NCBI GenBank assembly: GCA_037444845.1
Contig: JBBILQ010000004.1
Location: forward strand, 12,745-76,744
Length of the DNA: 64,000 nt
Direction: 5' to 3'
From: Candidatus Aminicenantes bacterium
Lineage (GTDB): Bacteria > Acidobacteriota > Aminicenantia > Aminicenantales > UBA8522
The notes below the pieces were generated by a model that was given only the letters and a program-made list of their open reading frames with translations, was not told the DNA's origin and did no database searches. The position numbers and the translations under genes are program-made. Shown in pieces: positions 3,629 through 59,442 of this stretch; within the stretch, counting starts at the first letter, position 1, and each line of letters begins with the position of its first letter.

Positions 3629-3970
3629 TCATTCCAACCTAAGTCTTTCCGCTTCGAGGCCAAAATCCTTCACCATAAGTTTGATGGCATGCGCTCTCTT
3701 CTCTGCTTTGAGATTTCCCTCATTGTAGTGGCAATCACCCAGATGACAACCGGGCGTCAGCAGTCCGTTCGACGCATTTCTATTTTGGGATAGCTCCGGC
3801 TTTCTATCCTCCTCATACCTGGCGAACATGACTCCCTTCTGCCTTGCCTTGGTATAATAGCCTTCTCTGAATCCATACGTTCTGATGTCCCGGAACAAAA
3901 CATAAACCTTCGTCCCGGGGAGAAAGCTCTTTTCCCTTCAAGGCGTTCTTCACTGCCTCGGTGCAACAAA
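3629..3970 (-). pseudogene. Decayed hdrA'-'mvhD fusion remnant: partial duplicate of the hdrA/mvhD junction with internal deletion
   Basis: The 89-aa ORF 3629..3898 reads FRDIRTYGFREGYYTKARQKGVMFARYEEDRKPE (matches HdrA 8084..11347 region FRDIRTYGFRESYYSEARRQGVMFARYEEDRKPE) joined to GCHLGDCHYNEGNLKAEKRAHAIKLMVKDFGLEAERLRLE (matches MvhD 7671..8087 GCHPGDCHYKEGNLKAEKRAEAIVLMLEDFGLEADRFKLE). Nucleotide identity is visible, e.g. ctgatgtcccggaacaaaacata shared with 8776..8798. Confidence 0.7.
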
Positions 3971-4028
3971 TGCTGAAGTAATAAATCTTGAATATTCGGT
4001 TGACACGACCGAAATTTCAAGATAATCT

Positions 4029-5198
4029 ATGGCCATGATAGACCGTCCTAGAGAAATTAAAACGCTGAAGAGGCTCATCGCTAGCCATCCTGTCGTCGGC
4101 ATCATCGGCGCCCGACAGGTTGGGAAGACGACTCTGGCCCGGTCGTTCGTCGCCCAGTGGCCAGGGCCGACTCATTATTTTGACCTCGAGAATACCGAAG
4201 ACGAGGCACGGCTCAGTGACCCCATGCTTGCGCTCAAAGGGCTTAAGGGCCTCATCGTGATCGATGAAATCCAGCGCTTGCCGGGTCTCTTTCAGGTTCT
4301 TAGGGTGCTCGCAGATAGAGTCCGGCCCGCCGCCCGTTTTCTCGTCTTGGGAAGCGCCTCGCCCGAGCTGCTTCGTCAGGGGTCTGAGACGCTTGCCGGC
4401 CGGATCATATATCACGAGCTAAGAAGCCTGTCTCTTGATGAAGTCGGGATGATAAATCACGCGCGCTTATGGTTGAGAGGAGGATTTCCCAGGGCTTATC
4501 TGGCCCGAACGGCCACCACGAGCGATGAGTGGCGCCGCGGCTTCATTAGGACATTTCTGGAGCGAGATCTGCCCCAGCTTGGTATTGCGATCCAATCGTC
4601 TACGCTGCGCCGATTCTGGACCATGCTGGCGCATTATCACGGCCAGATCTGGAATTCCTCGGAATTTGCCCGCTCATTCGGCGTTGCCGACACGACCGTA
4701 CGGAACTATCTCGATCTGCTGACTTCGGCGCTGGTTGTCACTCAGCTTCAGCCGTGGCATGAGAACATCAGCAAGCGTCAGATAAAGTCGCCAAAGATCT
4801 ATCTTGCAGATAGTGGAATACTGCACACCCTCCTCAACATCACCTACTTGCAGGACCTCGAAATGCATCCCAAACTTGGAGCCTCATGGGAGGGTTTCGT
4901 GATCAGCCAGGTGATCCGGCAGCTTGGGGCGAGGCCTGATGAATGCTATTTTTGGGGCACCTATGCCGGAAGTGAATTGGATCTATTCGTGGCCAAGGGT
5001 CAATTGCGGCTCGGATTCGAGATCAAGAGAACCAGCTCGCCACGCCTCACGCCGTCCATGAGAACCGCTATGAAAGACCTGAAATTAAAGAGTCTGGACG
5101 TAATCCATGCGGGAGAGAACACCTTTGGCTTGGCCGAGAAAATCCGAGCAGTGGCTTTCCCCAGGTTGCTCGAAGATATAAAGCCCCTACACAAATAG
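4029..5198 (+). CDS. AAA+ ATPase of the DUF4143/COG1373 type (P-loop NTPase)
   Basis: Walker A GARQVGKTTLA and Walker B LIVIDEIQ; architecture typical of stand-alone AAA ATPases that often sit next to defence genes. Confidence 0.75.
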   Translation: MAMIDRPREIKTLKRLIASHPVVGIIGARQVGKTTLARSFVAQWPGPTHYFDLENTEDEARLSDPMLALKGLKGLIVIDEIQRLPGLFQVLRVLADRVRPAARFLVLGSASPELLRQGSETLAGRIIYHELRSLSLDEVGMINHARLWLRGGFPRAYLARTATTSDEWRRGFIRTFLERDLPQLGIAIQSSTLRRFWTMLAHYHGQIWNSSEFARSFGVADTTVRNYLDLLTSALVVTQLQPWHENISKRQIKSPKIYLADSGILHTLLNITYLQDLEMHPKLGASWEGFVISQVIRQLGARPDECYFWGTYAGSELDLFVAKGQLRLGFEIKRTSSPRLTPSMRTAMKDLKLKSLDVIHAGENTFGLAEKIRAVAFPRLLEDIKPLHK

Positions 5199-5349
5199 TG
5201 TCAACGCCTCGAGCTCGACCCAGTCTTTGGAAAGCACTGTTGAAGCCCGGGAGGCTGCCGCCGTGGCCAGAAAGACAGCGTCTTTTTAGCATGATAAAAA
5301 TATCGTAAACCGGACTTGAATTCATGGCCATATTAAGATTATTGGCAGG

Positions 5350-6381
5350 ATGAGGGAAATATTCCGGTTCGGTTCGCCAGCCGACAAAACGAAAAAACTC
5401 AGCAAGAGGACTTCCATAAGAAGCGCAAGTAAAGTGTTTGATACGCGCCCCCGGATCAGTGACTCTTTTGGACTGGATGAACGGATCGTCGTTCATTGCG
5501 GCGACTGCCTGGATTTCCTGAAATCGATTCCGGATCAAACACAACAGTTTATTGTAACATCCCCGCCCTATAATATAGGCAAGGAATACGAAAAACGCCT
5601 TGAGCTCCAGGTATATTTGGATCAACAAGCAAATGTCATTACTGAGTGCGCCCGGGTTTTAAAGCATTCCGGCAGCATCTGCTGGCAGGTTGGAAATTAT
5701 GTTAAGAACGGATCGATAATTCCCCTCGATACTGTCTTATATCCCATCTTTATAGGATTGGGCTTTAAGATGAGAAATCGCATCATTTGGCATTTTGAGC
5801 ACGGCCTTCATTGCTCAAGGCGCTTCTCTGGTCGCTACGAAACGATCATCTGGTTCACTAAGTCGGATGAATACTATTTTAATCTCGACGGGGTCCGCGT
5901 TCCGCAAAAATACCCAGGGAAAAGGCATTTCAAGGGCCCAAAAGCAGGACTGTACTCGGGCAATCCGCTGGGCAAGAATCCCGGCGATCTGTGGATCATT
6001 CCAAACGTCAAGAGTAACCATATCGAGAAGACAATCCACCCCTGCCAGTTTCCCGTTGAACTAATCGAGCGGCTCGTGTTAGCCCTGACTCAAACCGGAG
6101 ATTGGGGCCTGGACCCATTTCTTGGGGTCGGCACTTCGATCATCGCCGCAATCCGGCATGATCGAAGAGGCGCTGGCGCGGAAATCGTTCCCAAGTATGT
6201 TGAGCTTGCCAAAGAGAGAATTGACCAGGAGATCGACGGCACCCTAAAAACGCGGCCCATGAGCCGGCCTGTATATGATCCAGTTGAAGCGGGGAACAGC
6301 CTGACGAAATCCCCATGGGGATCAGAATCTAAGTCTCCTCAACTCTCCCTCATCAAAAGCTTGGTGAACAGGCAGGAATAG
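5350..6381 (+). CDS. Type II DNA methyltransferase, beta-class (N4-cytosine or N6-adenine; SPPY motif IV before FxGxG motif I)
   Basis: TSPPY catalytic motif near the N-terminus, HPCQFP and DPFLGVGTS (AdoMet motif I) near the C-terminus. This order is typical of N4C MTases such as M.BglII, M.PvuII and M.BamHI. Confidence 0.85.
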   Translation: MREIFRFGSPADKTKKLSKRTSIRSASKVFDTRPRISDSFGLDERIVVHCGDCLDFLKSIPDQTQQFIVTSPPYNIGKEYEKRLELQVYLDQQANVITECARVLKHSGSICWQVGNYVKNGSIIPLDTVLYPIFIGLGFKMRNRIIWHFEHGLHCSRRFSGRYETIIWFTKSDEYYFNLDGVRVPQKYPGKRHFKGPKAGLYSGNPLGKNPGDLWIIPNVKSNHIEKTIHPCQFPVELIERLVLALTQTGDWGLDPFLGVGTSIIAAIRHDRRGAGAEIVPKYVELAKERIDQEIDGTLKTRPMSRPVYDPVEAGNSLTKSPWGSESKSPQLSLIKSLVNRQE

Positions 6382-6385
6382 CTGA

Positions 6386-7155
6386 TTGACAATCGCTGAA
6401 ATCTATTCTCATCTTAATGGGCAGGAGTTTCTCTTGGTGCATAAGCGCGCGCTTTGGAAAGAAATCAAAGCGGTCATTAAAGAAGTCGATGCCGTGAAAT
6501 GCAGGACAAAAATCTCGAAGGAAAAAACGAAGAAAGGAAGAACGCTGTACAGCCCGATTGCTCTCAACGCAGATTTTAAAAGACTGCTCAGGGCAAAGAA
6601 TTGGCAAGAGAGCCGGGTTAGTTACTGGGTGACGAAGAGCGAAAAGCTTATTCGAAAGACGTTGACGATGACCGCGGCCGAGCAAAAACGCGAAATCGAA
6701 GAAGCTGGAGAGAAACCTATTTTTAGCTATAATCAGACGGATTTCGTCAAAGACAGAGTCGCGGTAGAAGTCCAATTCGGGAAATACGCGTTTGTTGCTT
6801 ATGATCTATTCGTAAAACACTTGGCTTTCTATGTTGGCGATCAAATAGCCTGATCTATTCACAAAATGATACGATAAAACGCCCCCTCCCCTGGCGGGAG
6901 GGGATAGAGGGGAGGGGGAATCTTTGAATGATCCCCCTCACCCCGACCCTCTCCCACATGGGGAGAGGAGATTTTTTCCTTTCATTTCGTGAATAGTCCA
7001 GGATAGATGTTGGGATTGAAATTCTTCCGATGAAGACTCTACAGAACGAGATGAGTTCGGGCGTTCCTTATTTTGAGGGTGAGTTTTATAACGTCGTTCG
7101 ACAGGGACGGGGAGTCCCCGCTGTGCCTCTGGTGCTAATCGGAGTCGAAGCTTAA
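6386..7155 (+). pseudogene. BglII-family type II restriction endonuclease gene interrupted by a MITE-A insertion (N-terminal part 6386..6848, C-terminal part 7007..7155)
   Basis: N-terminal ORF ends ...RVAVEVQFGKYAFVAYDLFVKHLAFYVGDQIA*. It contains the BglII-like ALWKEI segment and the catalytic EVQF block (BglII TLVEVQF). The stop codon lies in the MITE terminal repeat. Removing 6849..7006 (element plus one ATAG copy) restores an in-frame 203-aa reading frame: ...DQID VGIEILPMK...VPAVPLVLIGVEA*. Confidence 0.75.
6849..7002 (-). mobile_element. MITE-A copy 1 (154 bp), flanked by 4-bp ATAG duplications; sits inside the REase gene
   Basis: Near-identical to 20977..21116 and 59289..59442. Terminal inverted repeats cctgRYctattcacRaaat; direct repeats atag at 6845..6848 and 7003..7006. 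Confidence 0.85.
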
Positions 7156-7445
7156 TCCCTGAGCACTCAACCCTAAGGTAATGAGGTAGCAGCGCGCCTA
7201 ATGCTTCAGCCATAAAGTCAGCATAACGCCATAAATAGGGTTCATAAGGATATGGGCTCAGATGTCAAATCGTGCAAAAAATGCGGAAGGCGGGCTCTGA
7301 AGATACAAAAAGGCCGAGTCACGCAGAAATCATCCAGACCTGTCTGACCTATCCTCCTGGAAAAGAAAGGATTACTAAAAATACTCAGCCGAAGTCTCGG
7401 CGGCCAGGAGAACTTCGTGATAGACAAGGCAGGATTGCTGGGCGG

Positions 7446-7655
7446 TTAAGCCGGGGGCGGCTGGCCTTCCAGGACAATTTTCGTCACCAATCTTCTTGTA
7501 TAAAGAAGAAATTGCCCCCCTTCTTCTATCAACTCCACTTCAAAATTGTCCTTCTTGTAGTTCTCCATCACCTCTTGAGCCTTCTCCCTGGACTCGTAGA
7601 CAACGCCATCCCACATGAATTTTTTCCCGTTTATGATCCTCGAAGAATCCGGCAT
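7446..7655 (-). CDS. Small hypothetical protein (69 aa) at the 3' end of the hdr operon
   Basis: ORF on the same strand and tightly spaced after mvhD. No recognisable motifs or cysteines. Confidence 0.3.
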   Translation of the reverse strand: MPDSSRIINGKKFMWDGVVYESREKAQEVMENYKKDNFEVELIEEGGQFLLYTRRLVTKIVLEGQPPPA

Positions 7656-7670
7656 CTTAAACCCTCTGTC

Positions 7671-8087
7671 TTAGGTTTTATACGGGCTCGGCCCTAACTT
7701 TTTAACCTTCTCGGTAAACTCCCTCACCACCTGGGCGAACCTCGGCCCCTCAGACGCCGAAACCCATTCCAACTTAAACCTGTCCGCTTCCAGGCCAAAA
7801 TCTTCCAGCATCAAAACGATTGCCTCGGCTCTCTTCTCCGCCTTGAGGTTTCCCTCCTTGTAGTGGCAGTCGCCGGGATGGCAACCGCACATCAGCACCC
7901 CATCCGCTCCCTTGGTCAGGGCATCAATCACTAAATTGGGATGGACCATCCCTGAGCACATCACTCTGATGATCCTTATATTGGGAGGATACTGCAACCT
8001 TGACACCCCGGCCAGGTCCGCTCCCGCATAGGAACACCAGTTGCAGCAAAAACTCACGATTAAGGGCTCAAACGCCTCACTCATCAT
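7671..8087 (-). CDS. mvhD: MvhD-like subunit (methyl-viologen-reducing hydrogenase delta / FlxD-like)
   Basis: FCCNWCSYAGADLAG...RVMCSGMV...CGCHPGDCHYKEGN, the MvhD signature. Confidence 0.9.
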   Translation of the reverse strand: MMSEAFEPLIVSFCCNWCSYAGADLAGVSRLQYPPNIRIIRVMCSGMVHPNLVIDALTKGADGVLMCGCHPGDCHYKEGNLKAEKRAEAIVLMLEDFGLEADRFKLEWVSASEGPRFAQVVREFTEKVKKLGPSPYKT

Positions 8088-11000
8088 CCTACTCCTAAGG
8101 CCGCGTTGGCCTGCGCGGCTAACTGTTCAAGGGTAAAGCCTTTGACGAATATTCCCTTCTTGGGACAGGTGGCCATGCAGCACCCGCAGCCCTTGCAGGC
8201 CGTCTCATCCACCTCGACCGTCTTTTTCACCGAACCATTTCTCATGTATTCGATTAATGTAATTGCCTGATAAGGACATGGTTCAATGCAGTAGGCGCAG
8301 CCGTCGCAGTTCTCATCCACCACCTGAGAAATGTTCGCCTCCAGCTCCACACTGTCCTTGGAGAGCACCGTCGATGCCCGGGAGGCTGTCGCCTGGGCCT
8401 GGATGATGCTCTCGTCGATGGCTTTGGCCGAATGAGCCAGGCCGCATAAAAAGACTCCCTCGGTGGCAAAATCAACAGGCCGCAACTTCATGTGGGCTTC
8501 CAGGAAAAACTTCTCCTTGGTTAAGGGGACTTTCAAGAATTTGGCAATCTCCTCGTTCCCCTGATCTGCCACAATTCCGGCCGACAACACGACCAAGTCC
8601 GCGGTAAGCTCCAGGGGCATCTTTAACGTCTGGTCAAAAACCACGACACTCAACCCATTCCCGTTCTGGGACACCTCCGGCTTTCTATCCTCTTCATACC
8701 TGGCGAACATGACTCCCTGCCGCCTGGCTTCGGAATAGTAGCTTTCCCTGAACCCGTACGTCCTGATGTCCCGGAACAAAACATACACATTCGTCTTAGA
8801 AGAAAGCTCTTTTATTTTTAGAGCGTTCTTGACGGCTTCGGTGCAGCAAATCCGGGAGCAGTAGGGCCTTTCCACATCCCGGGAGCCAACGCATTGAATC
8901 ATCACGATGTTCCTGGGAATTCCGTTATTCCTGCCCTTTGACCAAATTCCACCCTCGCCGAGGCGCTGCTCCAGCTCAAGCTGAGTTATGACTCTGTCAT
9001 TCTGTCCGTACAGATACTCCTTGGGTTTATATTGCTGAGCTCCGGTGGCAACGATCACGACGCCGTGTTCAAATTCTTCTGATTTTCCGTTCGTGCTAAT
9101 CGTTGTCTTGAAATTCCCGATTGTCCCTTCAATCTTTTCGATCTTAGCATCTGTGTAAAGAAAGATTTTTCCCGAGTCTTCGACCTGTTCGATAAGGCTT
9201 TTTAACCTGCTCTGCGGGTTTTCTCCGCTTATTAAGTAGTTGATATGCCGGAGATTTCCGCCCAGCTCCTTCTCCTTCTCAACCAGATGGACATAAAACC
9301 CCTGGTTAGCCAGTTCGATTGCCGAAGTCATGCCCGAAAGCCCGCCGCCGATGACGAGGGCAGCTTTAACGATGGGCACGGCTCTTTTCTGGAGAGGGCT
9401 CAATAATCGCGCCTTGGCCACAGCCATTCTGACCAAGTCCCTGGATTTCTCCGTTGCCTTTTCCGGCTCCGCCATATGCACCCAGGAGCACTGGTCCCTG
9501 ATATTGGCCATCTCGAAAAGATAGGGGTTCAGCCCAGCTTCCCTGGCCGTATTCCTGAACAGAGGCTCGTGAGTTCGCGGCGTGCAGGAGGCCACGACGA
9601 CGCGGTTGAGGCTGTGCTCCTTGATTTTTTCCTTTATTCTCTCTTGAGTGTCGTTCGAACAGGTGTAGAGGTTATTTTCTGCGTAAACGACACCGGGAAG
9701 CGTCCTGGCATACTCGACTACATCCAGGACACGGACCACCCCGGCGATATTTGTCCCGCAGTGACAGACGAAGACTCCGATTCGCGGCGCCTGCCCGCTG
9801 ACATCAGTCTCCGGGGGGTATTCCTTGGGAATAATAAGGCTTCCTTTAACGTCTCTTAAGAGCGACAGGACTTTGGACGAGGCGCCCGAGGCCTGCATGA
9901 CCGTCTCCGGTATATCCTTTGGCTCAGTAAAAGGACCGGCGACATACACTCCTTCGCGTTTTGATTCAACCGGAGCAAAAGGAGACGTCTTGCAGAAATG
10001 GAATTCATTGAGCTCGACCCCGAATATTTCAGAAATTTCTTTGGCCGATTTTGGGGGGAGCATGCCGACGGATAAAACAACAAGGTCATACTCACGCGAA
10101 GCCTTCCTGTCGTCCTCCGTTAGATAGTCGACGATCAGGTTTTTTGTTTGAGGGACCTCTTTAATGGTGGGCGGACGACACCTTACATAATTTACTCCAT
10201 GCTCCTTAGCCCTTTGATAATACTCATCAAACCCCTTGCTGAAGGCGCGCATGTCCATGATGTAGACATCACAGTCCAGATCTCCGCTGATATGCTCCTT
10301 GGCAATGATGGCTTCCTTGGTCGCGTACATGCAGCAGACAGAGGAGCAATAATCCCGCTCCGAATCACGCGAGCCCACGCACTGGATAAAGGCTATCCTT
10401 CTGGGTTCGGTCTTGTCATAAGGCCTTAAGACTTTTCCAGAATAGGGGCCCGAAGCAGAGAGGATTCTTTCAAACTCGAGCGAGGTGACGACATTAGGGG
10501 AAGCCCCGTATCCCAAACCCTCTTTGATCTTGGCGTCGAACAGGTCGTATCCCGGCGACAGGATGACCGCGCCGACATCCAATTCCATTTTCTTCTCGGT
10601 CTGGTCATAGTCAATCGCCCCGGCTTCGCAAAACTCCTTGCAGACCCCGCATTCATCCTTGAGCACATGGACACAGTATCGTTCGTCGATCGCTGCTTTA
10701 TGAGGAACGGCCTGGGGATAGGCAATGTAGGCCGCAGCCCGATCGAGCAATCCCTTGTCAAATTCATTCAAGATGGGGATTTCTTTATTCTTGCTGATTT
10801 TCTCAAGCCTAATCCTTTCGGTCGGACAAATAAAGGCACAGGCTCCGCAGGTCTGGCAGACATCGGAATTGGCATCAAACGGCGGGCCGACCTTCCGCTG
10901 AGGTCCGCGATGGACAAACCCGATGGCCGCGACACCCATTCGTTCGCAGCACATTCTTGTGCACAAGCCGCAAAGGAAACAATCATCGTTCCTCTTTGTA

Positions 11001-11347
11001 AAGCGTGTTTCTCTAACCCCATGTTCTTCGGCAACACTCTGGATGACTTTTGAATCAGGGCATCTCGCCAGGAGCAGTTCGATCATGATCTTCCGCGATT
11101 TTTTCACCCTTTCGGAATCCGTCTTCACCTCCAAACGATGGCTCGCCGGATAGGTGCATGAAGTCTGAATCGTCGTCCTCCCCCTTTGAATAACCTCGAC
11201 CAGGCATAATCTGCAAGCTCCGTAAGGAGTTAGGGCTTTATGATAACAGAGAGTCGGGACCTTTATGCCCACACTCTGAAGACATTCTAAGACTGTCTTC
11301 CCTTCATCGAATTCGTACTGTCTGCCGTTTATCGTCAGCTCAATCAC
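8084..11347 (-). CDS. hdrA: HdrA-like FAD/FeS oxidoreductase with an N-terminal NuoG-like 2Fe-2S/4Fe-4S domain and tandem HdrA modules (1087 aa)
   Basis: N-terminus MIELTINGRQYEF...CYHKALTPYGACRLCLVEV (2Fe-2S ferredoxin domain); FAD-binding GGGLSGMTSAIELA; HdrA Cys-rich CHCGTNIAG and CSWVH motifs; C-terminal CxxCxxCxxxCP ferredoxin. Confidence 0.85.
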   Translation of the reverse strand: MIELTINGRQYEFDEGKTVLECLQSVGIKVPTLCYHKALTPYGACRLCLVEVIQRGRTTIQTSCTYPASHRLEVKTDSERVKKSRKIMIELLLARCPDSKVIQSVAEEHGVRETRFTKRNDDCFLCGLCTRMCCERMGVAAIGFVHRGPQRKVGPPFDANSDVCQTCGACAFICPTERIRLEKISKNKEIPILNEFDKGLLDRAAAYIAYPQAVPHKAAIDERYCVHVLKDECGVCKEFCEAGAIDYDQTEKKMELDVGAVILSPGYDLFDAKIKEGLGYGASPNVVTSLEFERILSASGPYSGKVLRPYDKTEPRRIAFIQCVGSRDSERDYCSSVCCMYATKEAIIAKEHISGDLDCDVYIMDMRAFSKGFDEYYQRAKEHGVNYVRCRPPTIKEVPQTKNLIVDYLTEDDRKASREYDLVVLSVGMLPPKSAKEISEIFGVELNEFHFCKTSPFAPVESKREGVYVAGPFTEPKDIPETVMQASGASSKVLSLLRDVKGSLIIPKEYPPETDVSGQAPRIGVFVCHCGTNIAGVVRVLDVVEYARTLPGVVYAENNLYTCSNDTQERIKEKIKEHSLNRVVVASCTPRTHEPLFRNTAREAGLNPYLFEMANIRDQCSWVHMAEPEKATEKSRDLVRMAVAKARLLSPLQKRAVPIVKAALVIGGGLSGMTSAIELANQGFYVHLVEKEKELGGNLRHINYLISGENPQSRLKSLIEQVEDSGKIFLYTDAKIEKIEGTIGNFKTTISTNGKSEEFEHGVVIVATGAQQYKPKEYLYGQNDRVITQLELEQRLGEGGIWSKGRNNGIPRNIVMIQCVGSRDVERPYCSRICCTEAVKNALKIKELSSKTNVYVLFRDIRTYGFRESYYSEARRQGVMFARYEEDRKPEVSQNGNGLSVVVFDQTLKMPLELTADLVVLSAGIVADQGNEEIAKFLKVPLTKEKFFLEAHMKLRPVDFATEGVFLCGLAHSAKAIDESIIQAQATASRASTVLSKDSVELEANISQVVDENCDGCAYCIEPCPYQAITLIEYMRNGSVKKTVEVDETACKGCGCCMATCPKKGIFVKGFTLEQLAAQANAALGVG

Positions 11348-11375
11348 GCCGACCTCCGTTCAAAGGAAACTGTTT

Positions 11376-14300
11376 TCATTCTTTAGCCTCGAGATCACAC
11401 CTCAGACATCGCTTGGCTTCAAGGACGGCATCGGCCTCGCTGAATCCCAGTTCAACCTCTGAAAAATCTTTAAGTCTCTGCTCAACCGGCCGGGATTGGA
11501 CTTCAGGCCTTTTCAGGCTTTTCGTCTCTTGCTCCGTGAGCTCAACGGCCTCCACATGCACGGCCGGACGGGTGACCTCATATCTTCTCTCCAGCTTTTC
11601 ACCCCTGATATACGTATCTATCATCTGAGCAGCCGTTTTGCCATGGGCCATGGCCTCGGTCACTGTATTCGGGCCGGTCACCACATCACCCCCTGCGAAT
11701 ATCCCCTTGATATTTGTAGAAAGAGTTTCGGGATCGACCTCGATGGTATTCCATTTAGAAATGTTCAATCCATTTCCGCTGAACAAAGAGACATCCGGCT
11801 CCTGACTGATGGCCAAAATCAACGTATCCACGTCGAGGCGAAATTCTGAGCCCTCTACCGGGACAGGCCGTCTTCTCCCGCTCTGGTCTATTTCTCCCAG
11901 TTCCATCCTGATACATTCAATAGCTTTGAGCTGGCCATTGCCTGAAATGACTTTGACCGGAGCAGCCAGGAATTGGATCTCCACGCCCTCGGCCATGGCT
12001 CCTTCAACTTCGCTCTCGATAGCGGGCATCTCCGCTCTCGTCCTTCTGTATAAAATTTTCGTATTCCTGCCTAAGCGTCTGGCTACCCGGGCAGCATCGA
12101 TGGCAGAATTTCCCCCCCCGACAACGATGACCTTGTCACCAATCTTGACTTGGCGTCCAAGGTTAACATCCCTCAGGAATTCGATGGCATCGATAACACC
12201 CCCCGCTTCTTCGCCGGGGATTTTCATCTTCAAGCCTCTATGAGCTCCGATGGCGATGAAAACAGCGTTATAGTCTTCCTTCAGTTTAGCTAAGGAAATG
12301 TCTTTCCCCACAGTCGTGTTCGTCTTTATTTCCACCCCTAATTTTTTTATCCTGTCTATTTCATACTTCAAGACATCCTTGGGGAGCCTGAAATCCGGAA
12401 TACCCAGGGCCAGCATGCCGCCGGGGAGTTCCTGGCTTTCAAATATGGTCACTTTGTACCCTTCAAGAGCAAGATAATAAGCGCACGTCAGCCCTCCCGG
12501 ACCGGAGCCAACGATGGCCACCTTTTCTTTTTTTTGGCTCTTTGGTTTTTCTCCCGTGTCGAGGTCATGCTTCATCTCATAATCGGCCAGGAAACGCTTC
12601 AGCAGCCTGATGGAGATGGGATCATCCCATTCCCCGGCGACGCACTTCTTTTCACAGGGCGTATTACAGACCCTCCCGCAGACAAGAGGGAGCGGGTTTT
12701 CTTTTCTCACCACTTTAATGGCATCTTCAAGTTTTCCCCGGGCAATGAGCCCTATATAACTGGGGACATCCTGGGAAAGCGGGCAGATATGCTGACAGGC
12801 AGATGAAATAATCCCCTTGCACACCAACGCAGAGCATCTCTTGTATTTAATGTGCTCGATATACTCGTCCTCGAAATATCTCAACGTGCTCAGGACAGGG
12901 TTCGGGAGCGTCTGTCCCAGCCCGCACATCGAGGCGTCTTTGATCGCATCGCTGAGCTCTTCTAAAATCTGGATGTCCTTTTCTTTGCCTTCCCCTCTGC
13001 AGATCCTCCTGAGTATTTCCAGGAGCTCCGTTGACCCGTCGCGGCAGGAAGCGCATTTTCCGCAGGACTCATCGTTGGTGAATTCGATAAAATACTTGGC
13101 CACATCCACGACACAGGTGTCCTCGTCCATCACAATCAACCCGCCGGATCCCATAATCGACCCTGCTTCGGTCAATTTTTCATAATCCACCGGCAGGTTT
13201 ATCAAACTCGCGGGAATGCACCCCCCTGAAGGCCCTCCCGTCTGGATGGCCTTGAACTTTTTCCCCTTCGGGATTCCGCCTCCGATATCATAGATGATTT
13301 CTTTTAGAGTAATTCCCATGGGGACTTCGACCAGGCCCGTGTTGTTGATCTTGCCGACAAGAGAAAATACCTTTGTCCCTTTGCTCAACGGAGTGCCAAT
13401 ACTGCTAAACCAATCCGATCCTCGGTCAATGATAACCGGAATCGTCGCCCAGGTTTCGACATTATTGATGACCGTGGGCTTTCCCCATAGCCCTGACTCA
13501 ACAGGAAACGGCGGCCTCTGTCTTGGCTCTGGCGGACGCCCCTCTATGGAACCGATGAGCGAGGTTTCTTCGCCGCAAACGAATGCCCCTGCTCCCTGTT
13601 TGATGGAAATATCAAAGCTGAAATCCGTATCGAATATTCTTTCACCAAGAAGCCCGTAATCTCTTGCCTGGGCCAGCGCAATCTCCAGCCTCTTCATGGC
13701 CAGCGGGTACTCCGCTCTGATGTAGACATACCCTTTTCTGGCGCCTATGGCTCTGGCTCCGATCAGCATTCCTTCGATGACCGAATGAGGGTCAGCCTCG
13801 ACAATGCTCCTGTCCATGTAAGCGCCGGGGTCGCCTTCATCTCCATTGCAGATGATGTATTTTGTGTCTCCCGGCTGGTTCCAGCACAGTTCCCACTTCA
13901 GGCCTGTTGGGAATCCAGCCCCTCCCCGGCCTCGCAGGCCGGATTTTTTCACTTCTTCAATAATATCTTCCGTCGACATTTCTGTGAGCGCCTTGGCCAG
14001 GGCTTTATACCCGTCTCTGGCGATGTATTCGTCGATGACTTCAGGGTCTATTAACCCCCTGTTTCTAAGAGAGATGAGCGTCTGGCGGGAGAAGAATCCA
14101 ATATCCATCATCTTGGGAATGGGAACCCTCTCGGCAGGGGGGGTAAACAGAAGCCGCTTGACAGGCCTCCCTTTCAAGAAATGCTCCTCAACCAGATGCG
14201 GAATGATATCTTTAGTTAGACTATGATAGAAAATGCCATCGGGCATGACAGTCATGACAGGGCCTACAGCGCAAAATCCGTTACATCCTGTCATGACAAC

Positions 14301-14441
14301 GATGACTTCTTTATCCAGTCCTTGCTTCTTTAATTCTTCGTCCAGCGCTTCCTTGATCTTAAAAGCCTTATTGGAAACACAAGCGGTCCCCGCGCAGAGC
14401 ATTAAATGGAGCCTGTATCTGTCCAAGTTTTGCCCGTTCAT
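11376..14441 (-). CDS. NuoE-like/NuoF-like/GltD(NfnB)-like fusion: NAD(P)H-oxidising flavoprotein (FlxA-like input module)
   Basis: N-terminal thioredoxin-like 2Fe-2S domain; NuoF motifs GLRGRGGAGFPTGLKWE and SCGKCxxCR; C-terminal GltD-type VAIVGSGPGGLTCAYYLALEGY...GGGNSAIDAAR. Confidence 0.85.
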   Translation of the reverse strand: MNGQNLDRYRLHLMLCAGTACVSNKAFKIKEALDEELKKQGLDKEVIVVMTGCNGFCAVGPVMTVMPDGIFYHSLTKDIIPHLVEEHFLKGRPVKRLLFTPPAERVPIPKMMDIGFFSRQTLISLRNRGLIDPEVIDEYIARDGYKALAKALTEMSTEDIIEEVKKSGLRGRGGAGFPTGLKWELCWNQPGDTKYIICNGDEGDPGAYMDRSIVEADPHSVIEGMLIGARAIGARKGYVYIRAEYPLAMKRLEIALAQARDYGLLGERIFDTDFSFDISIKQGAGAFVCGEETSLIGSIEGRPPEPRQRPPFPVESGLWGKPTVINNVETWATIPVIIDRGSDWFSSIGTPLSKGTKVFSLVGKINNTGLVEVPMGITLKEIIYDIGGGIPKGKKFKAIQTGGPSGGCIPASLINLPVDYEKLTEAGSIMGSGGLIVMDEDTCVVDVAKYFIEFTNDESCGKCASCRDGSTELLEILRRICRGEGKEKDIQILEELSDAIKDASMCGLGQTLPNPVLSTLRYFEDEYIEHIKYKRCSALVCKGIISSACQHICPLSQDVPSYIGLIARGKLEDAIKVVRKENPLPLVCGRVCNTPCEKKCVAGEWDDPISIRLLKRFLADYEMKHDLDTGEKPKSQKKEKVAIVGSGPGGLTCAYYLALEGYKVTIFESQELPGGMLALGIPDFRLPKDVLKYEIDRIKKLGVEIKTNTTVGKDISLAKLKEDYNAVFIAIGAHRGLKMKIPGEEAGGVIDAIEFLRDVNLGRQVKIGDKVIVVGGGNSAIDAARVARRLGRNTKILYRRTRAEMPAIESEVEGAMAEGVEIQFLAAPVKVISGNGQLKAIECIRMELGEIDQSGRRRPVPVEGSEFRLDVDTLILAISQEPDVSLFSGNGLNISKWNTIEVDPETLSTNIKGIFAGGDVVTGPNTVTEAMAHGKTAAQMIDTYIRGEKLERRYEVTRPAVHVEAVELTEQETKSLKRPEVQSRPVEQRLKDFSEVELGFSEADAVLEAKRCLRCDLEAKE

Positions 14442-18429: not shown

Positions 18430-19390
18430 GGTTGCCTTTTACTGGTCCTCCTCGTGCGGCGGCTGCGAGGAATCCATCGTTGACCTGGCAGAAGACATCC
18501 TCAAAGTTGTTGCTGCCGTGGACATCGTCTTCTGGCCGGTCGCTCTCGATTTTAAGAAGAAGGATGTCGAGGCCATGCCCGACGGCTCCATCGCCGTGAG
18601 TTTCATCAACGGCGCCGTCAGGCTCTCCGAGCAGGAGGAAATGGTCAAGCTCCTGCGCCGGAAATCCCAGCTCGTCGTCGCCCACGGATCCTGCTCCCAT
18701 CTTGGAGGAATCCCCGGGCTGGGGAACTTCTGGAATAGAGAGACGATCTTCCGGCGCGCCTATCACACGACGCCTTCCACGCAAAACCCTGAGAAAATCG
18801 TCCCGCAGGAAAAGACCATCCTTGAAGGAAAAGAGCTCACCCTGCCCGTGTTTTACGACACGGTTTACGCTCTCAACCAGGTCATCGATGTCGACTATTA
18901 CCTGCCCGGGTGCGCGCCGCCTCGGGATCTCATCCTCAGCGCCGTCAGCGCCATTTTAGAGGGAAAGCTTCCGGCGAAAGGAGCCGTCCTCTCGCCCAAC
19001 ACGTCTCTCTGTGACGACTGCGATAGGAACAAAACCAAGCCCGAAAAATTGACCATCAAGGAGATCAAGCGTCCCTGGGAAATCATGTTAGACCCAGAAA
19101 AATGCTTCCTTGCCCAGGGAGTCATCTGCATGGGACCGGCCACCCGGACAGGCTGCAACGAGCGCTGCATCGAGGCGAACATGCCTTGCCGGGGCTGTTT
19201 CGGCCCCACCGACCAGGTCTACGACCAGGGCGCCAAGTTTCTCTCAGCCCTGGCTTCGATCTTAGACACGAACGACGAAAAGGAAATCGACAGGATCGTC
19301 CAATCCATATCCGACCCTGCAGGAACCTTTTACCGGTTCAGTCTGCCCACGTCCATCCTGCAGCGAAGACGCATGGAGGCCATAAAATGA
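18407..19390 (+). CDS. mvhG: NiFe hydrogenase small subunit, MvhG-type (group 3c)
   Basis: Start chosen at MSNAKPKVAFYWSSSCGGCEES (RBS GGAGG 5 nt upstream); proximal cluster Cys motifs; overlaps mvhD by 23 nt. Confidence 0.85.
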   Translation, partial: NMSNAKPKVAFYWSSSCGGCEESIVDLAEDILKVVAAVDIVFWPVALDFKKKDVEAMPDGSIAVSFINGAVRLSEQEEMVKLLRRKSQLVVAHGSCSHLGGIPGLGNFWNRETIFRRAYHTTPSTQNPEKIVPQEKTILEGKELTLPVFYDTVYALNQVIDVDYYLPGCAPPRDLILSAVSAILEGKLPAKGAVLSPNTSLCDDCDRNKTKPEKLTIKEIKRPWEIMLDPEKCFLAQGVICMGPATRTGCNERCIEANMPCRGCFGPTDQVYDQGAKFLSALASILDTNDEKEIDRIVQSISDPAGTFYRFSLPTSILQRRRMEAIK

Positions 19391-20847
19391 CTCAAAGAAT
19401 AACCATTGACCCGATCACTCGACTCGAAGGCCACGGCAAAATCGAGATTTTTCTCGACGACAAAGGAAATGTCGACCGGGCCATCCTCCAGATCCCGGAG
19501 CTCAGGGGTTTCGAACAGTTTGCCGTGGGCAGGCCGGTGGAGGAAATGCCGCGGATCACACCCCGCATCTGCGGTGTCTGTCCGACCGCTCACCACATGG
19601 CGTCGACCAAAACCGTCGACGCCGTCTTCCACGTCGAGCCCACTCCGACTGCCCGCAAAATCAGGGAACTCATCTACAACACGTTCATGATGGAAGACCA
19701 CACTCTCCACTTCTTCTTCCTGGGAGGGCCGGATTTCGTCGTCGGCCCCCAAGCGCCGGCGGCCGAGCGGAATATCTTGGGCGTCATCGGCAAGGTCGGC
19801 CTCGAGATTGGCGGCAAGGTCATCCGGGTGCGGCGTGAGTGCCGGGACATCATCAATTACCTGGCCGGAAAAGTCATCCACCCGGTCTGCGGCCTCCCGG
19901 GCGGCGTCTCCAAGGGGCTGGATGAAGAACACCGGGTTCAGTTCCTGGAGACGGCCAAATTCGCCGTCGAATTCGCCCAATTCGCCCTCCAGATATTTAA
20001 CGACGTCGTCCTGAAGAACAAAGAATACGTCGCCCTCGTCGTCGGCGACGCCTATAAAATCAAAACCTACTACATGGGACTTGTCGATGACAAAAACAAG
20101 GTCAATTTCTATGACGGAGCCGTGCGCGTCGTCTCTCCGGAAGGGAAAGAGTTCGCCAAGTTCAGGCCGAATGAATATTTAGAGCACATCGCCGAGCGCG
20201 TCGAGCCGTGGAGCTACATTAAGTTTCCTTTCTTAAAAAAAGTCGGCTGGAATGGGTTTACGGAAGGTTCGGGATCGGGCGTCTACAGGGTTGCCCCGCT
20301 GGCCCGGTTGAACGCTTCGGATGGCATGGCCACTTCTCTGGCCCAGAAAGAGCACGACCGGATGTACGAGACACTCGGAGGAAAACCTGCTCATAACACG
20401 TTGGCTTTCCACTGGGCCCGCCTGATTGAGGCCCTCCAGGCTGCCGAAGCCATGGTCATGTTGCTCGAGGACAGGTCCATCACCGATACAAATATCCGCA
20501 CGATCCCCACCCAGACGCCAACCGAAGGCGTGGGCATCGTAGAAGCACCCCGGGGAACGCTCATCCACCACTACAAGACAGATGAAAAGGGGATCGTTGA
20601 GGAGGCCAACTTGATCGTGGCCACGGTCAACAACTCGGCGGCTATCAACATGTCCATAGAGAAAGCGGCTAAAGCGTTCATAAAGGGTGGAAATGTCTCC
20701 GAAGGGCTGCTTAACCTGGCTGAGATGGCCTTCCGCCCCTACGACCCCTGCCATGCCTGCGGAACCCATGCCCTGCCAGGCGATATGCCGCTCGTCATCA
20801 ACATCTATGATCGAGACGGAGAGCTCGTCCGGCAGCTGAAGAGATGA
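19387..20847 (+). CDS. mvhA: NiFe hydrogenase large subunit, MvhA-type
   Basis: Start MTQRITIDPITRLEGHG overlaps the mvhG stop (ATGA). RICGVCP N-terminal Ni-binding motif; C-terminal DPCHACGTH followed by a short cleavable tail. Confidence 0.9.
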   Translation: MTQRITIDPITRLEGHGKIEIFLDDKGNVDRAILQIPELRGFEQFAVGRPVEEMPRITPRICGVCPTAHHMASTKTVDAVFHVEPTPTARKIRELIYNTFMMEDHTLHFFFLGGPDFVVGPQAPAAERNILGVIGKVGLEIGGKVIRVRRECRDIINYLAGKVIHPVCGLPGGVSKGLDEEHRVQFLETAKFAVEFAQFALQIFNDVVLKNKEYVALVVGDAYKIKTYYMGLVDDKNKVNFYDGAVRVVSPEGKEFAKFRPNEYLEHIAERVEPWSYIKFPFLKKVGWNGFTEGSGSGVYRVAPLARLNASDGMATSLAQKEHDRMYETLGGKPAHNTLAFHWARLIEALQAAEAMVMLLEDRSITDTNIRTIPTQTPTEGVGIVEAPRGTLIHHYKTDEKGIVEEANLIVATVNNSAAINMSIEKAAKAFIKGGNVSEGLLNLAEMAFRPYDPCHACGTHALPGDMPLVINIYDRDGELVRQLKR

Positions 20848-20910: not shown

Positions 20911-21165
20911 AATAGGCGGATGTTTCTCCTGTCAAGGCGAGCACCCATTGCGTGCGTGGCATCCCATGATAACTAACCTGGACTATTCACGAAATGAAAG
21001 GAAAAAATCCCCTCTCCCCATGTGGGAGAGGGTCGGGGTGAGGGGGATCATTCAAAGATTCCCCCTCCCCCCAGGGGAGGGGCCTGCTTTCTGGCATAAT
21101 TTGTGAATAGGTCAGGCTAACTGAGATCACTTCGTTTCGCTCGCGATGACAAAGTCCTAACGGCA
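20911..21165. repeat. Repeat-C palindromic element (REP-like) split by a nested MITE-A insertion
   Basis: Left half gtcaaggcgagcacccattgcgtgcgtggcatcccatgataa, right half ctgagatcacttcgtttcgctcgcgatgac. Together they align to the uninterrupted copy at 38620..38696. Confidence 0.7.
20977..21116 (+). mobile_element. MITE-A copy 2 (140 bp; 14-bp internal deletion relative to the other copies) with CTAA target duplication
   Basis: ctaa at 20973..20976 and 21117..21120; inserted within repeat C. Confidence 0.85.
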
Positions 21166-27107: not shown

Positions 27108-27890
27108 ATGGAAAAAGAAAAGTTGAAAATCGGCATCTACGAGCTCACCGGCTGCGCCGGCGACGCTCTCCTCATTGTCGACTGCGAAGAGGAGCTTGTG
27201 AACATCTTCAAGGCCGCCGACATCGAGTCCTTCCTCATGGCCAAGAGCGATAACCGCAACGGCGAGCTCGACGTGGCTCTGGTGGAGGGCTCGGTCAGCA
27301 CGGAAAACGAAAAGGAAGAGCTCCTGGATATCAGAAAACGGTCCAAGGTTGTCGTGGCCATAGGCAACTGCGCCTGCGTCGGCGGCATCCAGGCAGCCTT
27401 CCTGGACAAGAAAGACTGGGAGAAGAACTTCAAGAAAGTTTACGGTGCCACCGCCTTCACCCACACCAAACCCGCCCAGAGCAAGCCTATCGACGCGTAC
27501 ATCCGCGTCGATCATTATCTTCCTGGCTGTCCCATCGGGAAAGAGCAGTTTCTTTCGACCTTCGCCCGGATGGTGGAAGGGAACCCGCCGGAGCTTTACC
27601 GCTTCCCCGTTTGCGTCGAATGCAAATGGCATGAAAACGACTGTCTTCTCAACAAAGACATCCCCTGTCTGGGTCCTTTGACATTGGGCGGCTGCGGGTC
27701 CGTTTGCCCGAATCATGCCATCCCCTGCTTTGGCTGCTGGGGCCCGACAGAGGAGGCCAATATGACTTCCGAATACCGCCTTCTCTTAGAAAAAGGCTTT
27801 GACCTCGAAATGATCAAAAAGAGAATGGCCACCTACTCCGGAACGAGGATTGCCGAGTTCTTCGCGCAATTCAGAAAGGAGAAAAGATGA
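27108..27890 (+). CDS. hydD: NiFe hydrogenase small subunit, group 3b (HydD-like)
   Basis: Start MEKEKLKIGIYELTGCAGD with RBS AAGGAGG; GNCACVGG and other cluster Cys motifs. Confidence 0.85.
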   Translation: MEKEKLKIGIYELTGCAGDALLIVDCEEELVNIFKAADIESFLMAKSDNRNGELDVALVEGSVSTENEKEELLDIRKRSKVVVAIGNCACVGGIQAAFLDKKDWEKNFKKVYGATAFTHTKPAQSKPIDAYIRVDHYLPGCPIGKEQFLSTFARMVEGNPPELYRFPVCVECKWHENDCLLNKDIPCLGPLTLGGCGSVCPNHAIPCFGCWGPTEEANMTSEYRLLLEKGFDLEMIKKRMATYSGTRIAEFFAQFRKEKR

Positions 27891-29623
27891 AGACGATCAG
27901 CATCGACCACCTCGCCCGCGTTGAAGGCAATGGCGGCATTTCCGCCACCATCGATGGCCGCGTCGTCACCGAAGTCAAGTTCACGGTCAACGAAGGCCCG
28001 AGACTCATCGAGCGCCTGACGGTCGGCAAGACGCCCGAAGAGGACGTCAGCATCGCTCCCCGGATATGCGCCATCTGCACTCTTTCTCATAAAAACGCCG
28101 TCCTCCGTGCCATGGAGAACGCCCTGGGTGTCAAGGTTCCGGCGAAAGTGACTCTCCTCCGGGAGCTCATGCACATGGGTGAGTTCATCGAAAGCCATTC
28201 CCTGCACGTGTTTTATCTTGCTCTCCCCGATTATGTAGGTTTTCCCAACGCCATTGCCATGGCCTCAAAATTTCCGCTTGAGGTCAAGATCGCCTTAGAG
28301 ATGAAGCAGTTCGGCAACCACATCATGAAAGTCCTGAGCGGCCGGTATATCCACGGCGAAAACCCGGTCATCGGCGGGTTCGGGAAGTACCCCGCCAGGG
28401 ATGAGCTCATCTGGATCAAAAACCGGGCGTTCCAGTTCATGCCCTTTGTTATCAGGACGGTGGACCTGTTCTGCGGCCTTGGCTATCCGGCCATTCCCGA
28501 GGAGGATACCGTCTACGCCTGTTGCGAGCCGGAAGACGGAAAATACGGTCTCTGGGGGGACGAGATCATCCTGTCCACGGGAGAAAAAATCAACAGGGAT
28601 GACTACAGGAGTTTGACAAACGAATTTTTCGTCCCGCATTCCTTTTGCAAGCGCAGCCGGTACAAAGGAAACACGTATTCTGTGGGCGCCCTCGCCCGAG
28701 TCAACGTCCTGGGCGAGAGGCTCGAGGGGGAAACAGGCAAGATGTTCAAGAAATATTTCAACGCCCGCTGGAAAAGGAACCCCCTCTTCCACAACGCTGC
28801 CCAGGCTCTGGAAATTCTTTACGCTTTTGAAAAAATCCCGGAGCTGGTGGATGAAATTCTCAAACACCCAGAGAATCCAGCTTTGGTTCCGTACAAATCC
28901 AAGAGCGGCAAAGGGACAGGCCTGGTGGAAGCTCCCCGGGGCCTCCTCGTCCATCATTATGAAATAGCAGACGGCCTTGTCGCCGACGTCGACATCATCA
29001 CTCCGACCGCTCAGAACGCCGAAGAGATCGAACGATATTGCTACATTGCAGCCCAGAAGCTCTTAGATGAGGGGAAAGAGAGCGAGATCAGAGACAGGAT
29101 GGAGCTCGTCGTCCGGGCGTTTGACCCATGCATCAGCTGTTCGGTCCATATGGCCGAGGTCAAAAAGGCCCCGGCCGAGAACTGGAAAATCAAGCTGGCC
29201 GGGCTCCTTAAAGCCAACCCTGTTTTTATCGGCGTCGGGAAAGAAGGCCGGTCGGACGACCGGGCCGGCCTTGAACTGGCCTTAGAGATGAGGAAAGCCG
29301 GCGTCAAAGACGTCTACCTGGAACAGGAACTCGAAGAGGGCCACATCCTGGAAAAGGCCTCCCGGCGGCCTCTCATTTTCCTGGACATCGCGAACATGGG
29401 AGAACAGGCGGGTAAAATTGCCGTGCTGCCTCTCCAGCACGTCTTCTGGAACTCCGTGCTAAGCCACAGACTCTTGCCCGCCCTCTCGAACAAACTGACC
29501 CACGACGAGATCAAACACGCCTACATTCTCGGCATCCAGCCCAAATCTGTGGAAGAAGGAGACGACTTGTCTCGGCCGGTCCGGCGGGCCCTAAAAAAAA
29601 TCCTGAGTGAAACGATAGATTAA
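27887..29623 (+). CDS. hydA: NiFe hydrogenase large subunit (HydA-like) fused in frame to a C-terminal maturation endopeptidase (HycI/HybD-like) domain
   Basis: RICAICT N-terminal motif; DPCISCSVH C-terminal Ni-binding motif at about aa 410. After a 24-aa linker comes VFIGVGKEGRSDDRAGLELALEM (compare the protease motif LGxGNxxxxDDGxG), then LIFLDIANMGEQAGK and THDEIKHAYILGIQPK. Confidence 0.8.
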   Translation: MKTISIDHLARVEGNGGISATIDGRVVTEVKFTVNEGPRLIERLTVGKTPEEDVSIAPRICAICTLSHKNAVLRAMENALGVKVPAKVTLLRELMHMGEFIESHSLHVFYLALPDYVGFPNAIAMASKFPLEVKIALEMKQFGNHIMKVLSGRYIHGENPVIGGFGKYPARDELIWIKNRAFQFMPFVIRTVDLFCGLGYPAIPEEDTVYACCEPEDGKYGLWGDEIILSTGEKINRDDYRSLTNEFFVPHSFCKRSRYKGNTYSVGALARVNVLGERLEGETGKMFKKYFNARWKRNPLFHNAAQALEILYAFEKIPELVDEILKHPENPALVPYKSKSGKGTGLVEAPRGLLVHHYEIADGLVADVDIITPTAQNAEEIERYCYIAAQKLLDEGKESEIRDRMELVVRAFDPCISCSVHMAEVKKAPAENWKIKLAGLLKANPVFIGVGKEGRSDDRAGLELALEMRKAGVKDVYLEQELEEGHILEKASRRPLIFLDIANMGEQAGKIAVLPLQHVFWNSVLSHRLLPALSNKLTHDEIKHAYILGIQPKSVEEGDDLSRPVRRALKKILSETID

Positions 29624-33225: not shown

Positions 33226-33562
33226 ACTTTCCATCATCGCCAGCCTGTTTGAAATCCTGGAAGAAAAAGCCCAGGAGCAGAAAGCGAACAAAATCGTCCT
33301 CGTCAAGTTAAAGGTCGGAAAACTGGCGGGCGCCGTCCCCGAGTTCCTCGAAACCGCCTTCAATATTTACAAGGACGGAACAATCGCCAGAGAAGCGATC
33401 CTGGAAATCGAGGAAGTCCCCCTCAGGATTCGCTGCCGCACGTGTCAGGCCATTGCCGAAAGGGATGACTTTGTCTTCGTCTGCCCGGCCTGCGGTTCGA
33501 CCGTCCTCGAAACTCTCGAAGGGACCGAGCTTCTCCTCGAAAAAATCGCCCTGGAAATCTAA
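33218..33562 (+). CDS. hypA: Hydrogenase nickel-insertion protein HypA
   Basis: MHELSIIASL N-terminus; zinc-finger CRTCQ...CPACGS. Confidence 0.85.
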   Translation: MHELSIIASLFEILEEKAQEQKANKIVLVKLKVGKLAGAVPEFLETAFNIYKDGTIAREAILEIEEVPLRIRCRTCQAIAERDDFVFVCPACGSTVLETLEGTELLLEKIALEI

Positions 33563-59288: not shown

Positions 59289-59442
59289 CCTGGACTATTC
59301 ACGAAATGAAAGGAAAAAATCCCCTCTCCCCATGTGGGAGAGGGTCGGGGTGAGGGGGATCATTCAAAGATTCCCCCTCCCCTCTATCCCCTCCCCCCAG
59401 GGGAGGGGCCTGCTTTCTGGCATAATTCGTGAATAGGTCAGG
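59289..59442 (+). mobile_element. MITE-A copy 3 (154 bp) flanked by TTAA / TTAG
   Basis: Identical architecture to copies 1 and 2; intergenic between dprA and the nucleotidyltransferase gene. Confidence 0.85.

Follow-up and report, generated by a model that had tools for sequence, protein, structure and literature searches.

The cassette and its split endonuclease gene

The window, meaning here the whole 64-kb stretch of DNA that was analysed, contains an intact methyltransferase gene followed by an endonuclease gene whose reading frame is interrupted by a short element. The segment 5303..7155 would represent a two-gene Type IIP restriction-modification cassette, in which the methyltransferase comes first and the endonuclease starts 4 nt after its stop. 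The features of the cassette are listed below.

5303..5349, (+) strand: short upstream stretch that accompanies the cassette; DNA similarity to intact cassettes begins here
5350..6381, (+) strand: beta-class amino-DNA methyltransferase gene, intact, 343 aa
6386..6848, (+) strand: 5' part of the endonuclease gene, codons 1-154 and the first base of codon 155; holds D119, E128, Q130 and K133
6845..6848, no strand: left copy of the target-site duplication, ATAG; intact alleles have a single ATTG
6849..7002, (-) strand: MITE copy 1, 154 bp; orientation opposite to that of copies 2 and 3
6849-6869 and 6982-7002: terminal inverted repeats of MITE copy 1
7003..7006, no strand: right copy of the target-site duplication, ATAG
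7007..7155, (+) strand: 3' part of the endonuclease gene, from the remainder of codon 155 through codons 156-203 to the stop codon; holds S172 and the VPAVPLVLIGV tail

The first endonuclease ORF, 6386..6853, begins with TTG and encodes 155 aa, and its TGA codon (6851-6853) lies three bases into the element, within the left terminal repeat. The 3' part is now separated from its start codon, and a single reading frame for the whole enzyme is absent, as 158 bp now stand between the last 49 codons and the codons before them. In silico deletion of 6849..7006 (158 bp, the element and one ATAG) produces a 612-nt open frame for 203 aa and a stop. The product, hereafter the restored protein, contains ALWKEI at residues 22-27, EVQF at 128-131 and VPAVPLVLIGV at 191-201. 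The earlier note had described this anatomy: a 154-bp MITE between ATAG duplications, a frame that stops within its terminal repeat, an intact SPPY methyltransferase upstream, and a 203-aa protein, with these three segments in one frame, that is regained by the deletion. All of these features were found, at the same positions.

The restored protein matches the Pfam family Endonuc-BglII (PF09195) from end to end, at positions 1-163 of 163, with 120.9 bits against a cut-off of 26 and an E-value of 5.6e-35, which bears out the assignment to the BglII/BstYI family. The PADLOC REase_II model, with 203 positions, is matched with the E-value 2.3e-94, and no model of NCBIfam matches the endonuclease. 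The endonuclease gene is a disrupted member of the BglII/BstYI family, that is, a pseudogene. An AlphaFold model of the restored protein, based on a 10-sequence alignment, has a mean pLDDT of 40 and is unusable; such a model is unnecessary, since the structure of BstYI has been solved and the identity to it is 67%.

BstYI (1sdo, 203 aa) is the sole strong match of the restored protein in PDB, with the E-value 3.3e-89. Residues 1-201 align to residues 1-201 of BstYI without gaps, and 134 of the 201 are identical. The identity is higher in the last 49 residues (79%) than in the N-terminal part (63%). In the ungapped alignment D119, E128, Q130, K133 and S172 are identical in BstYI, and all five are invariant across 10 relatives. 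We take D119, E128 and Q130 (Asp...Glu-x-Gln) to be the catalytic residues of the family, and K133 and S172 to be the specificity residues of BstYI. Studies by Samuelson and Xu in 2002 and by Townson and colleagues in 2005 are said to have linked K133 and S172 to site recognition by BstYI.

The similarity to BglII is marginal. With the restored protein as a single query, phmmer revealed no match to BglII at E <= 0.01; a profile of ten relatives reached BglII with the E-value 0.0056 and 19 bits, across residues 20-75 only (about 56 residues). The 223-position model of PADLOC is matched with the E-value 7.7e-4, as against the far stronger match to the 203-position REase_II. BglII (PDB 1D2I, 1DFM, 1ES8; AGATCT) belongs to the same Pfam family and has the same D...ExQ type of active site, but it is 223 aa long, whereas the restored protein is 203 aa. 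The description of the protein as "BglII-like" is thus correct with respect to family membership, and not with respect to orthology. Judged by sequence, the restored protein is an orthologue of BstYI inside the BglII/BstYI family, not an orthologue of BglII. Homologues found on plasmids are annotated as "BglII/BstYI family type II restriction endonuclease".

BstYI, a Type IIP enzyme from Geobacillus stearothermophilus Y406 (PDB 1SDO, 1VRR, 2P0J), cuts R/GATCY, and the sites of BglII and BamHI are among the sequences covered by this degenerate site (PMC2731914, PMC3413111). Because of the orthology, the expected target of the endonuclease is RGATCY rather than AGATCT alone, and RGATCY is its predicted specificity. 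The two enzymes share the length of 203 aa and PF09195. They differ in that an insertion of 158 bp divides the gene in the window after codon 154, that its host is an uncultured Aminicenantes bacterium and not a Firmicute, and that its specificity is a prediction from the sequence.

Uninterrupted alleles of the endonuclease exist. A search of a large protein collection returned at least 8000 homologues of the restored protein; nearly all of the best 120 are exactly 203 aa long, and the top identity is 95%. The junction at which the two gene parts meet (...YVGDQI followed by DVGIEILPMK...) is conserved in an alignment of ten relatives and the window protein, in which 129 columns do not vary. 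The 95% relative is encoded on a JGI metagenome contig (L001), where a 343-aa methyltransferase is followed four bases on by a 203-aa endonuclease, as in the window. The same layout with the 4-nt spacing is also seen in L091, L092 and L094-L096. DNA alignment to the intact L001 allele leaves one clean 158-bp gap, with an empty site of ATTG in L001 against ATAG-element-ATAG in the window. The 154 bp are coding sequence in no homologue examined, so the possibility raised in the earlier note, that orthologous loci carry them as native coding sequence, is not borne out.

With 86% DNA identity, the L001 allele is the nearest intact one among the matches listed, and its genomic context is different. 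The allelic relationship holds for the cassette and does not extend to the chromosomal locus. When positions 4900-7700 of the window were compared with blastn, DNA similarity to the L001 cassette was restricted to 5303 to 7154. The neighbours of the cassette vary: it lies beside TsaD in L001 and L091, beside an ECF sigma factor in L092-L096, and beside hdrA/mvhD in the window. The limits of the similarity together with the varied neighbourhoods indicate that the cassette moves as a two-gene unit.

Directly upstream of the cassette lies a gene for a DUF4143/AAA_14 ATPase (4029-5198), which matches the PADLOC candidate defence family PDC-S01. Farther upstream, beyond the ATPase, there is a decayed remnant of an hdrA-mvhD pair. 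Hydrogenase, Hdr-like and sigma-54 regulator genes are also encoded in the window. The window topoisomerase I (TopA) is 77-78% identical to its counterparts in Aminicenantes MAGs, which places the host, at phylum level, with the Aminicenantes (Acidobacteriota).

The inserted element and its copies

The element that interrupts the endonuclease reading frame ends with CCTGATCTATTCACAAAATGA and, in reverse complement, CCTGGACTATTCACGAAATGA. These are 21-nt terminal inverted repeats, in which 18 of the 21 bases match. When at most 3 mismatches are allowed, the 21-mer occurs 4 times in the window, while 0.00 occurrences are expected from 100 shuffles; the repeat is therefore not a chance match. The full length of the element forms an imperfect palindrome, in which the two 74-nt arms show 74% complementarity, and the fold of its single-stranded DNA has an energy of -38.2 kcal/mol (z = -5.5 versus shuffles).

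G/C-rich hairpins are found within the element, including terminator-like stem-loops on both strands. The terminator-like hairpin in the sense direction (6948-6968) is followed by AGATTTTTTC, and another is present on the opposite strand; both are consensus matches only. The element has no coding capacity; its longest stop-free stretch is 48 codons of G/C-rich hairpin sequence. An Rfam scan of 6300-7700 detected no family at threshold, introns included. The sub-threshold matches are to generic hairpin models (miRNA precursors), with 19-27 bits against cut-offs of 50-106, and all of the matches being of this kind, an intron or a known RNA was rejected as the identity of the element.

Exactly three full copies of the element were revealed in the window by BLAST and profile search. 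In addition to copy 1 in the endonuclease gene, they are the following.

20977..21116, (+) strand: MITE copy 2, 140 bp, with a 14-bp internal deletion; intergenic; CTAA on both flanks
59289..59442, (+) strand: MITE copy 3, 154 bp; intergenic; flanks TTAA and TTAG

The window copies are 98-99% identical over the shared 94-120 nt, and the divergence is greater near one end. Copy 1 has its own variant of the subterminal sequence, which is absent from copies 2 and 3. The element is small, carries terminal repeats, is bounded by a 4-bp duplication, occurs in dispersed copies and has an empty-site counterpart, and with these features it falls under the definition of a MITE.

A scan with a degenerate pattern of the terminal repeat matched eight metagenome loci and one viral locus. 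Three of these (L003, L008 and L010) are further genuine copies, on unrelated metagenome contigs. The L008 copy is internal to its contig, while the L003 and L010 copies are cut by contig ends, as is expected of a repeat. The other matches (L004-L007, L009 and the viral L097) were rejected as false positives: in each, the 21-mer lies inside unrelated coding sequence with an LDYSQN motif, and there is neither a partner repeat nor a transposase. The viral locus L097 and L009 are one and the same contig. No match to an exact 25-mer taken from the MITE was found in GTDB representative genomes. In the closest relatives (L011-L014), the region around topA is syntenic and copy 3 is not present, but the intergenic region is unalignable at about 74% DNA identity, so that the absence is not informative as to an empty site.

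The flanks of the three metagenome copies are TTAA, TTAG and CTAG. The six left flanks are CTAT, CTAA, TTAA, TTAA, TTAG and CTAG, and five of the six fit YTAR. The copy in the endonuclease gene is the exception, and its CTAT/ATAG departs slightly from YTAR. IS5-type elements target YTAR and produce a 4-bp duplication. An IS5-type transposase acting in trans presumably moved the element, as judged from the 4-bp flanks only. Neither the window, nor 1.37 Mb of related loci, nor the metagenome scan yielded an autonomous IS that shares the terminal repeats.

The element shares many properties with IS5-derived bacterial MITEs and with the Correia elements of Neisseria: it measures 140-154 bp, ends in inverted repeats, folds into a long hairpin, lacks coding capacity, is flanked by short TA-centred duplications, lies mostly in intergenic DNA and contains terminator-like hairpins. 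The likeness to the Correia elements is functional, and the likeness to IS5 lies in the YTAR targets. It differs from IS5-derived MITEs in that a parent insertion sequence was not found in the window, the related loci or the collection scans. The family appears to be undescribed and present in low copy number in Aminicenantes-like genomes.

The methyltransferase and its predicted target

The methyltransferase matches Pfam N6_N4_Mtase (PF01555) at positions 2-221 of 221 (169 bits, E-value 2e-49) and the PADLOC MTase_II model with the E-value 3.5e-84. In NCBIfam it is below the cut-off of every equivalog. SPPY (motif IV) occupies residues 71-74 and precedes the AdoMet motif FLGVGT at 257-262. 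In methyltransferases of the beta group, motif IV is DPPY or SPPY and precedes the AdoMet motif (PMC2890505). The protein is 85% identical, without gaps, to the 343-aa methyltransferase encoded beside the intact endonuclease in L001, and the comparison of the two genes shows a dN/dS of 0.12.

The best relative with a solved structure is an adenine enzyme, M.RsrI (E-value 1.7e-33), ahead of the m4C enzymes. M.BamHI and M.BglII, the latter being the partner of the BglII endonuclease, are m4C enzymes, and M.BstYI is "possibly" one (PMC2890505). The SPPY motif favours m4C chemistry, and methylation of RGATCY at N4 of cytosine would be the likeliest activity of the methyltransferase in the window.

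RGATCY occurs 39 times in the 64-kb window, whereas a Markov model predicts 52 occurrences and base composition 62 (ratio 0.63-0.75). This depletion is mild, and as a sign of past restriction activity it is not decisive in 64 kb. The count shows only that the genome holds many sites that would have to be protected from an active nuclease.

Age and consequences of the insertion

In the comparison with the L001 allele, codons 2-154 of the endonuclease show a dN/dS of 0.037, and the now-untranslated codons 155-203 show 0.017, with 21 synonymous and 2 non-synonymous differences. The dS is about 0.9-1.1, which means that the silent sites are becoming saturated while the protein is nearly unchanged. 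No other stop or frameshift is present in either half of the endonuclease gene. The low dN/dS in both halves and the absence of another lesion point to a recent insertion. The recent inactivation suggested in the earlier note thus agrees with a dN/dS of about 0.03 in both halves of the gene, values that a fragment drifting for long as a pseudogene would not be expected to show. The insertion is recent when set against the time since the split from the nearest known allele.

It is very probable that the locus is a BstYI-type cassette in which the endonuclease gene was split by a MITE and the methyltransferase was left as a probable orphan. The 154-bp non-autonomous element would have entered the endonuclease gene at an ATAG within codons 154/155, presumably mobilised in trans by a DDE transposase of the IS5 type that duplicates a 4-bp target. 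As the added 158 bp are not a multiple of three and an in-frame TGA is reached three bases into the element, translation is expected to end after 155 residues. The last 49 residues would be lost, and these are the best conserved part of the endonuclease and include S172. The terminator-like hairpin of the element, in the direction of transcription, may add to the effect. The endonuclease is predicted to be dead. The untouched methyltransferase probably keeps methylating RGATCY, with N4 of cytosine the likeliest position, as a new orphan. Loss of the nuclease with retention of the methylase is the safe exit for a cell from an addictive restriction system.

The cassette resembles other cases in which an orphan methyltransferase has arisen from endonuclease loss, in that an intact methyltransferase stands beside a disrupted endonuclease gene. 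From what is known of restriction-modification decay and post-segregational killing, such an arrangement is the expected first step toward an orphan methyltransferase. The case in the window differs in being at a very early stage, with a single lesion in the endonuclease gene and no decay.

It is unlikely that the whole cassette is a relic, in which the methyltransferase is also non-functional or silent and no orphan methylation takes place. A simple scan for one promoter type detected no convincing sigma-70-type promoter upstream of 5350, in a lineage whose promoters are uncharacterised. Against this, the methyltransferase is full length and aligns without gaps, at 85% identity, to the partners of intact endonucleases; its dN/dS of 0.12, the retained SPPY and FLGVGT motifs and the position of the insertion downstream of the gene all speak for a functional enzyme.

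It is very unlikely that the system is still alive, either through precise excision of the element, which would be an on/off phase variation, or through a nuclease or DNA-binding role of the 155-aa fragment. The lack of secondary decay, with the low dN/dS in both halves, would fit such a system, but a recent insertion explains it equally well. The fragment keeps the triad D119, E128 and Q130 as well as K133; however, the missing 49 residues are highly conserved, with 79% identity to BstYI against 63% for the rest, and they include S172. No natural truncation of about 155 aa is seen among the best 120 of at least 8000 relatives, nearly all of which are 203 aa. The perfect duplications permit precise excision in principle; precise excision of MITEs is rare. 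A reversible switch, in which excision of the MITE restores BstYI-type restriction in a sub-population while the always-on methyltransferase protects the genome, is accordingly given just as little credence. If true, it would be a MITE-based phase variation of a Type II system.

An assembly artefact, by which the repeat was misplaced into an intact endonuclease gene, is more improbable still. The element is repetitive, and the metagenome contigs L003 and L010 break at its ends, so that it is of a type prone to mislead assemblers. The perfect ATAG/ATAG duplication and the exact restoration of the frame on removal are, however, the signature of transposition and not of a mis-join, and copy 1 has a subterminal variant of its own that is absent from copies 2 and 3. 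That the segment is native and removable, being intron-like or subject to recoding so that the full-length enzyme is still made, can practically be dismissed: the perfectly preserved flanking frames are all that favours it, while the segment is absent from every homologue examined, matches no Rfam family (introns included) at threshold, recurs as the same element at two other, intergenic sites of the window, and shifts the frame by 158 bp into an immediate stop.

It is already well known that transposable elements insert into restriction genes and that orphan methylases are left behind, and no new mechanism is involved. The case is clean but ordinary and will not surprise a specialist. Its value is that it shows, with textbook clarity, a restriction-modification system caught at the first step of its decay, with one lesion in the nuclease gene, an intact methylase and an identifiable element. 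For annotation, the pair of short "hypothetical" ORFs should be combined into a single BstYI-family pseudogene, with the 154-bp repeat labelled as a MITE. The element also represents a MITE family that had not been listed before, from a candidate phylum without cultured members. In methylomes of Aminicenantes, an m4C signal at RGATCY would stem from the newly orphaned enzyme.

Hairpins in the MITE and matches to its terminal repeat

MITE copy 1, the element inserted in the endonuclease gene of the BstYI-type restriction-modification pair, includes two terminator-like hairpins, both G/C-rich and followed by a T-run:

6882-6904, - strand, terminator-like hairpin
6948-6968, + strand, terminator-like hairpin

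MITE copies could stop transcription in both directions at any insertion site. The 21-nt terminal-repeat pattern was also matched in five metagenome contigs:

L004, 4-24
L005, 1487-1507
L006, 10758-10778
L007, 10264-10284
L009, 4857-4877

The matches in L004, L005, L006, and L009 are within a long reading frame beginning at an L(D/V)YSQN motif. All five are coincidental matches in unrelated contigs and no MITE copies. Such chance matches call for caution when MITEs are counted by pattern.

Genes and sequence composition around the cassette

The gene just 5' of the methyltransferase gene encodes an ATPase and is located outside the cassette common to other genomes:

4029-5198, + strand, DUF4143/AAA_14 ATPase gene, matching the PADLOC candidate defence family PDC-S01 (E-value 1.9e-81)

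The region of the ATPase and the methyltransferase looks like a small defence island. On the - strand at 3630-3971, two fragments are fused: 3769-3971 shows 81% identity to 8650-8851 of the intact hdrA-like gene, and 3630-3762 shows 78% identity to 7765-7897 of mvhD, while ~750 bp between the hdrA and mvhD parts have no counterpart. A paralogous pair of hdrA and mvhD genes has decayed to this stretch, which lies at the left edge of the ATPase and restriction-modification island.

Anaerobic redox genes are dense in the window, at 8084-14441 (-), 19102-20847 (+), 27887-29623 (+), and 33559-36963 (-). Among their products, two very large HdrA-like/NuoF-like flavoprotein fusions have lengths of 1087 and 1021 aa, and a third has 1134 aa. 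NiFe-hydrogenase large subunits are encoded by two of the genes, one of which is located just 5' of MITE copy 2. Across the whole window, palindromic hexamers containing CTAG are nearly missing (ACTAGT, CCTAGG, and TCTAGA 0 each, GCTAGC 2), and GATC is in excess (313 observed against 247 expected by base composition).

Conservation and distribution of the endonuclease

In the protein-collection search, the restored endonuclease showed at least 80% identity to every one of the 120 relatives listed, whose source names include Nitrososphaera (archaea), Spirochaetes, Chloroflexi, Planctomycetota, Terriglobia, and Syntrophorhabdaceae. The dN/dS of the gene is ~0.03, with silent sites near-saturated. 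The BstYI-type endonuclease is unusually highly conserved and widely distributed. The low dN/dS, together with such identity across these source names, indicates that constraint is strong and that the two-gene cassette is often transferred horizontally.
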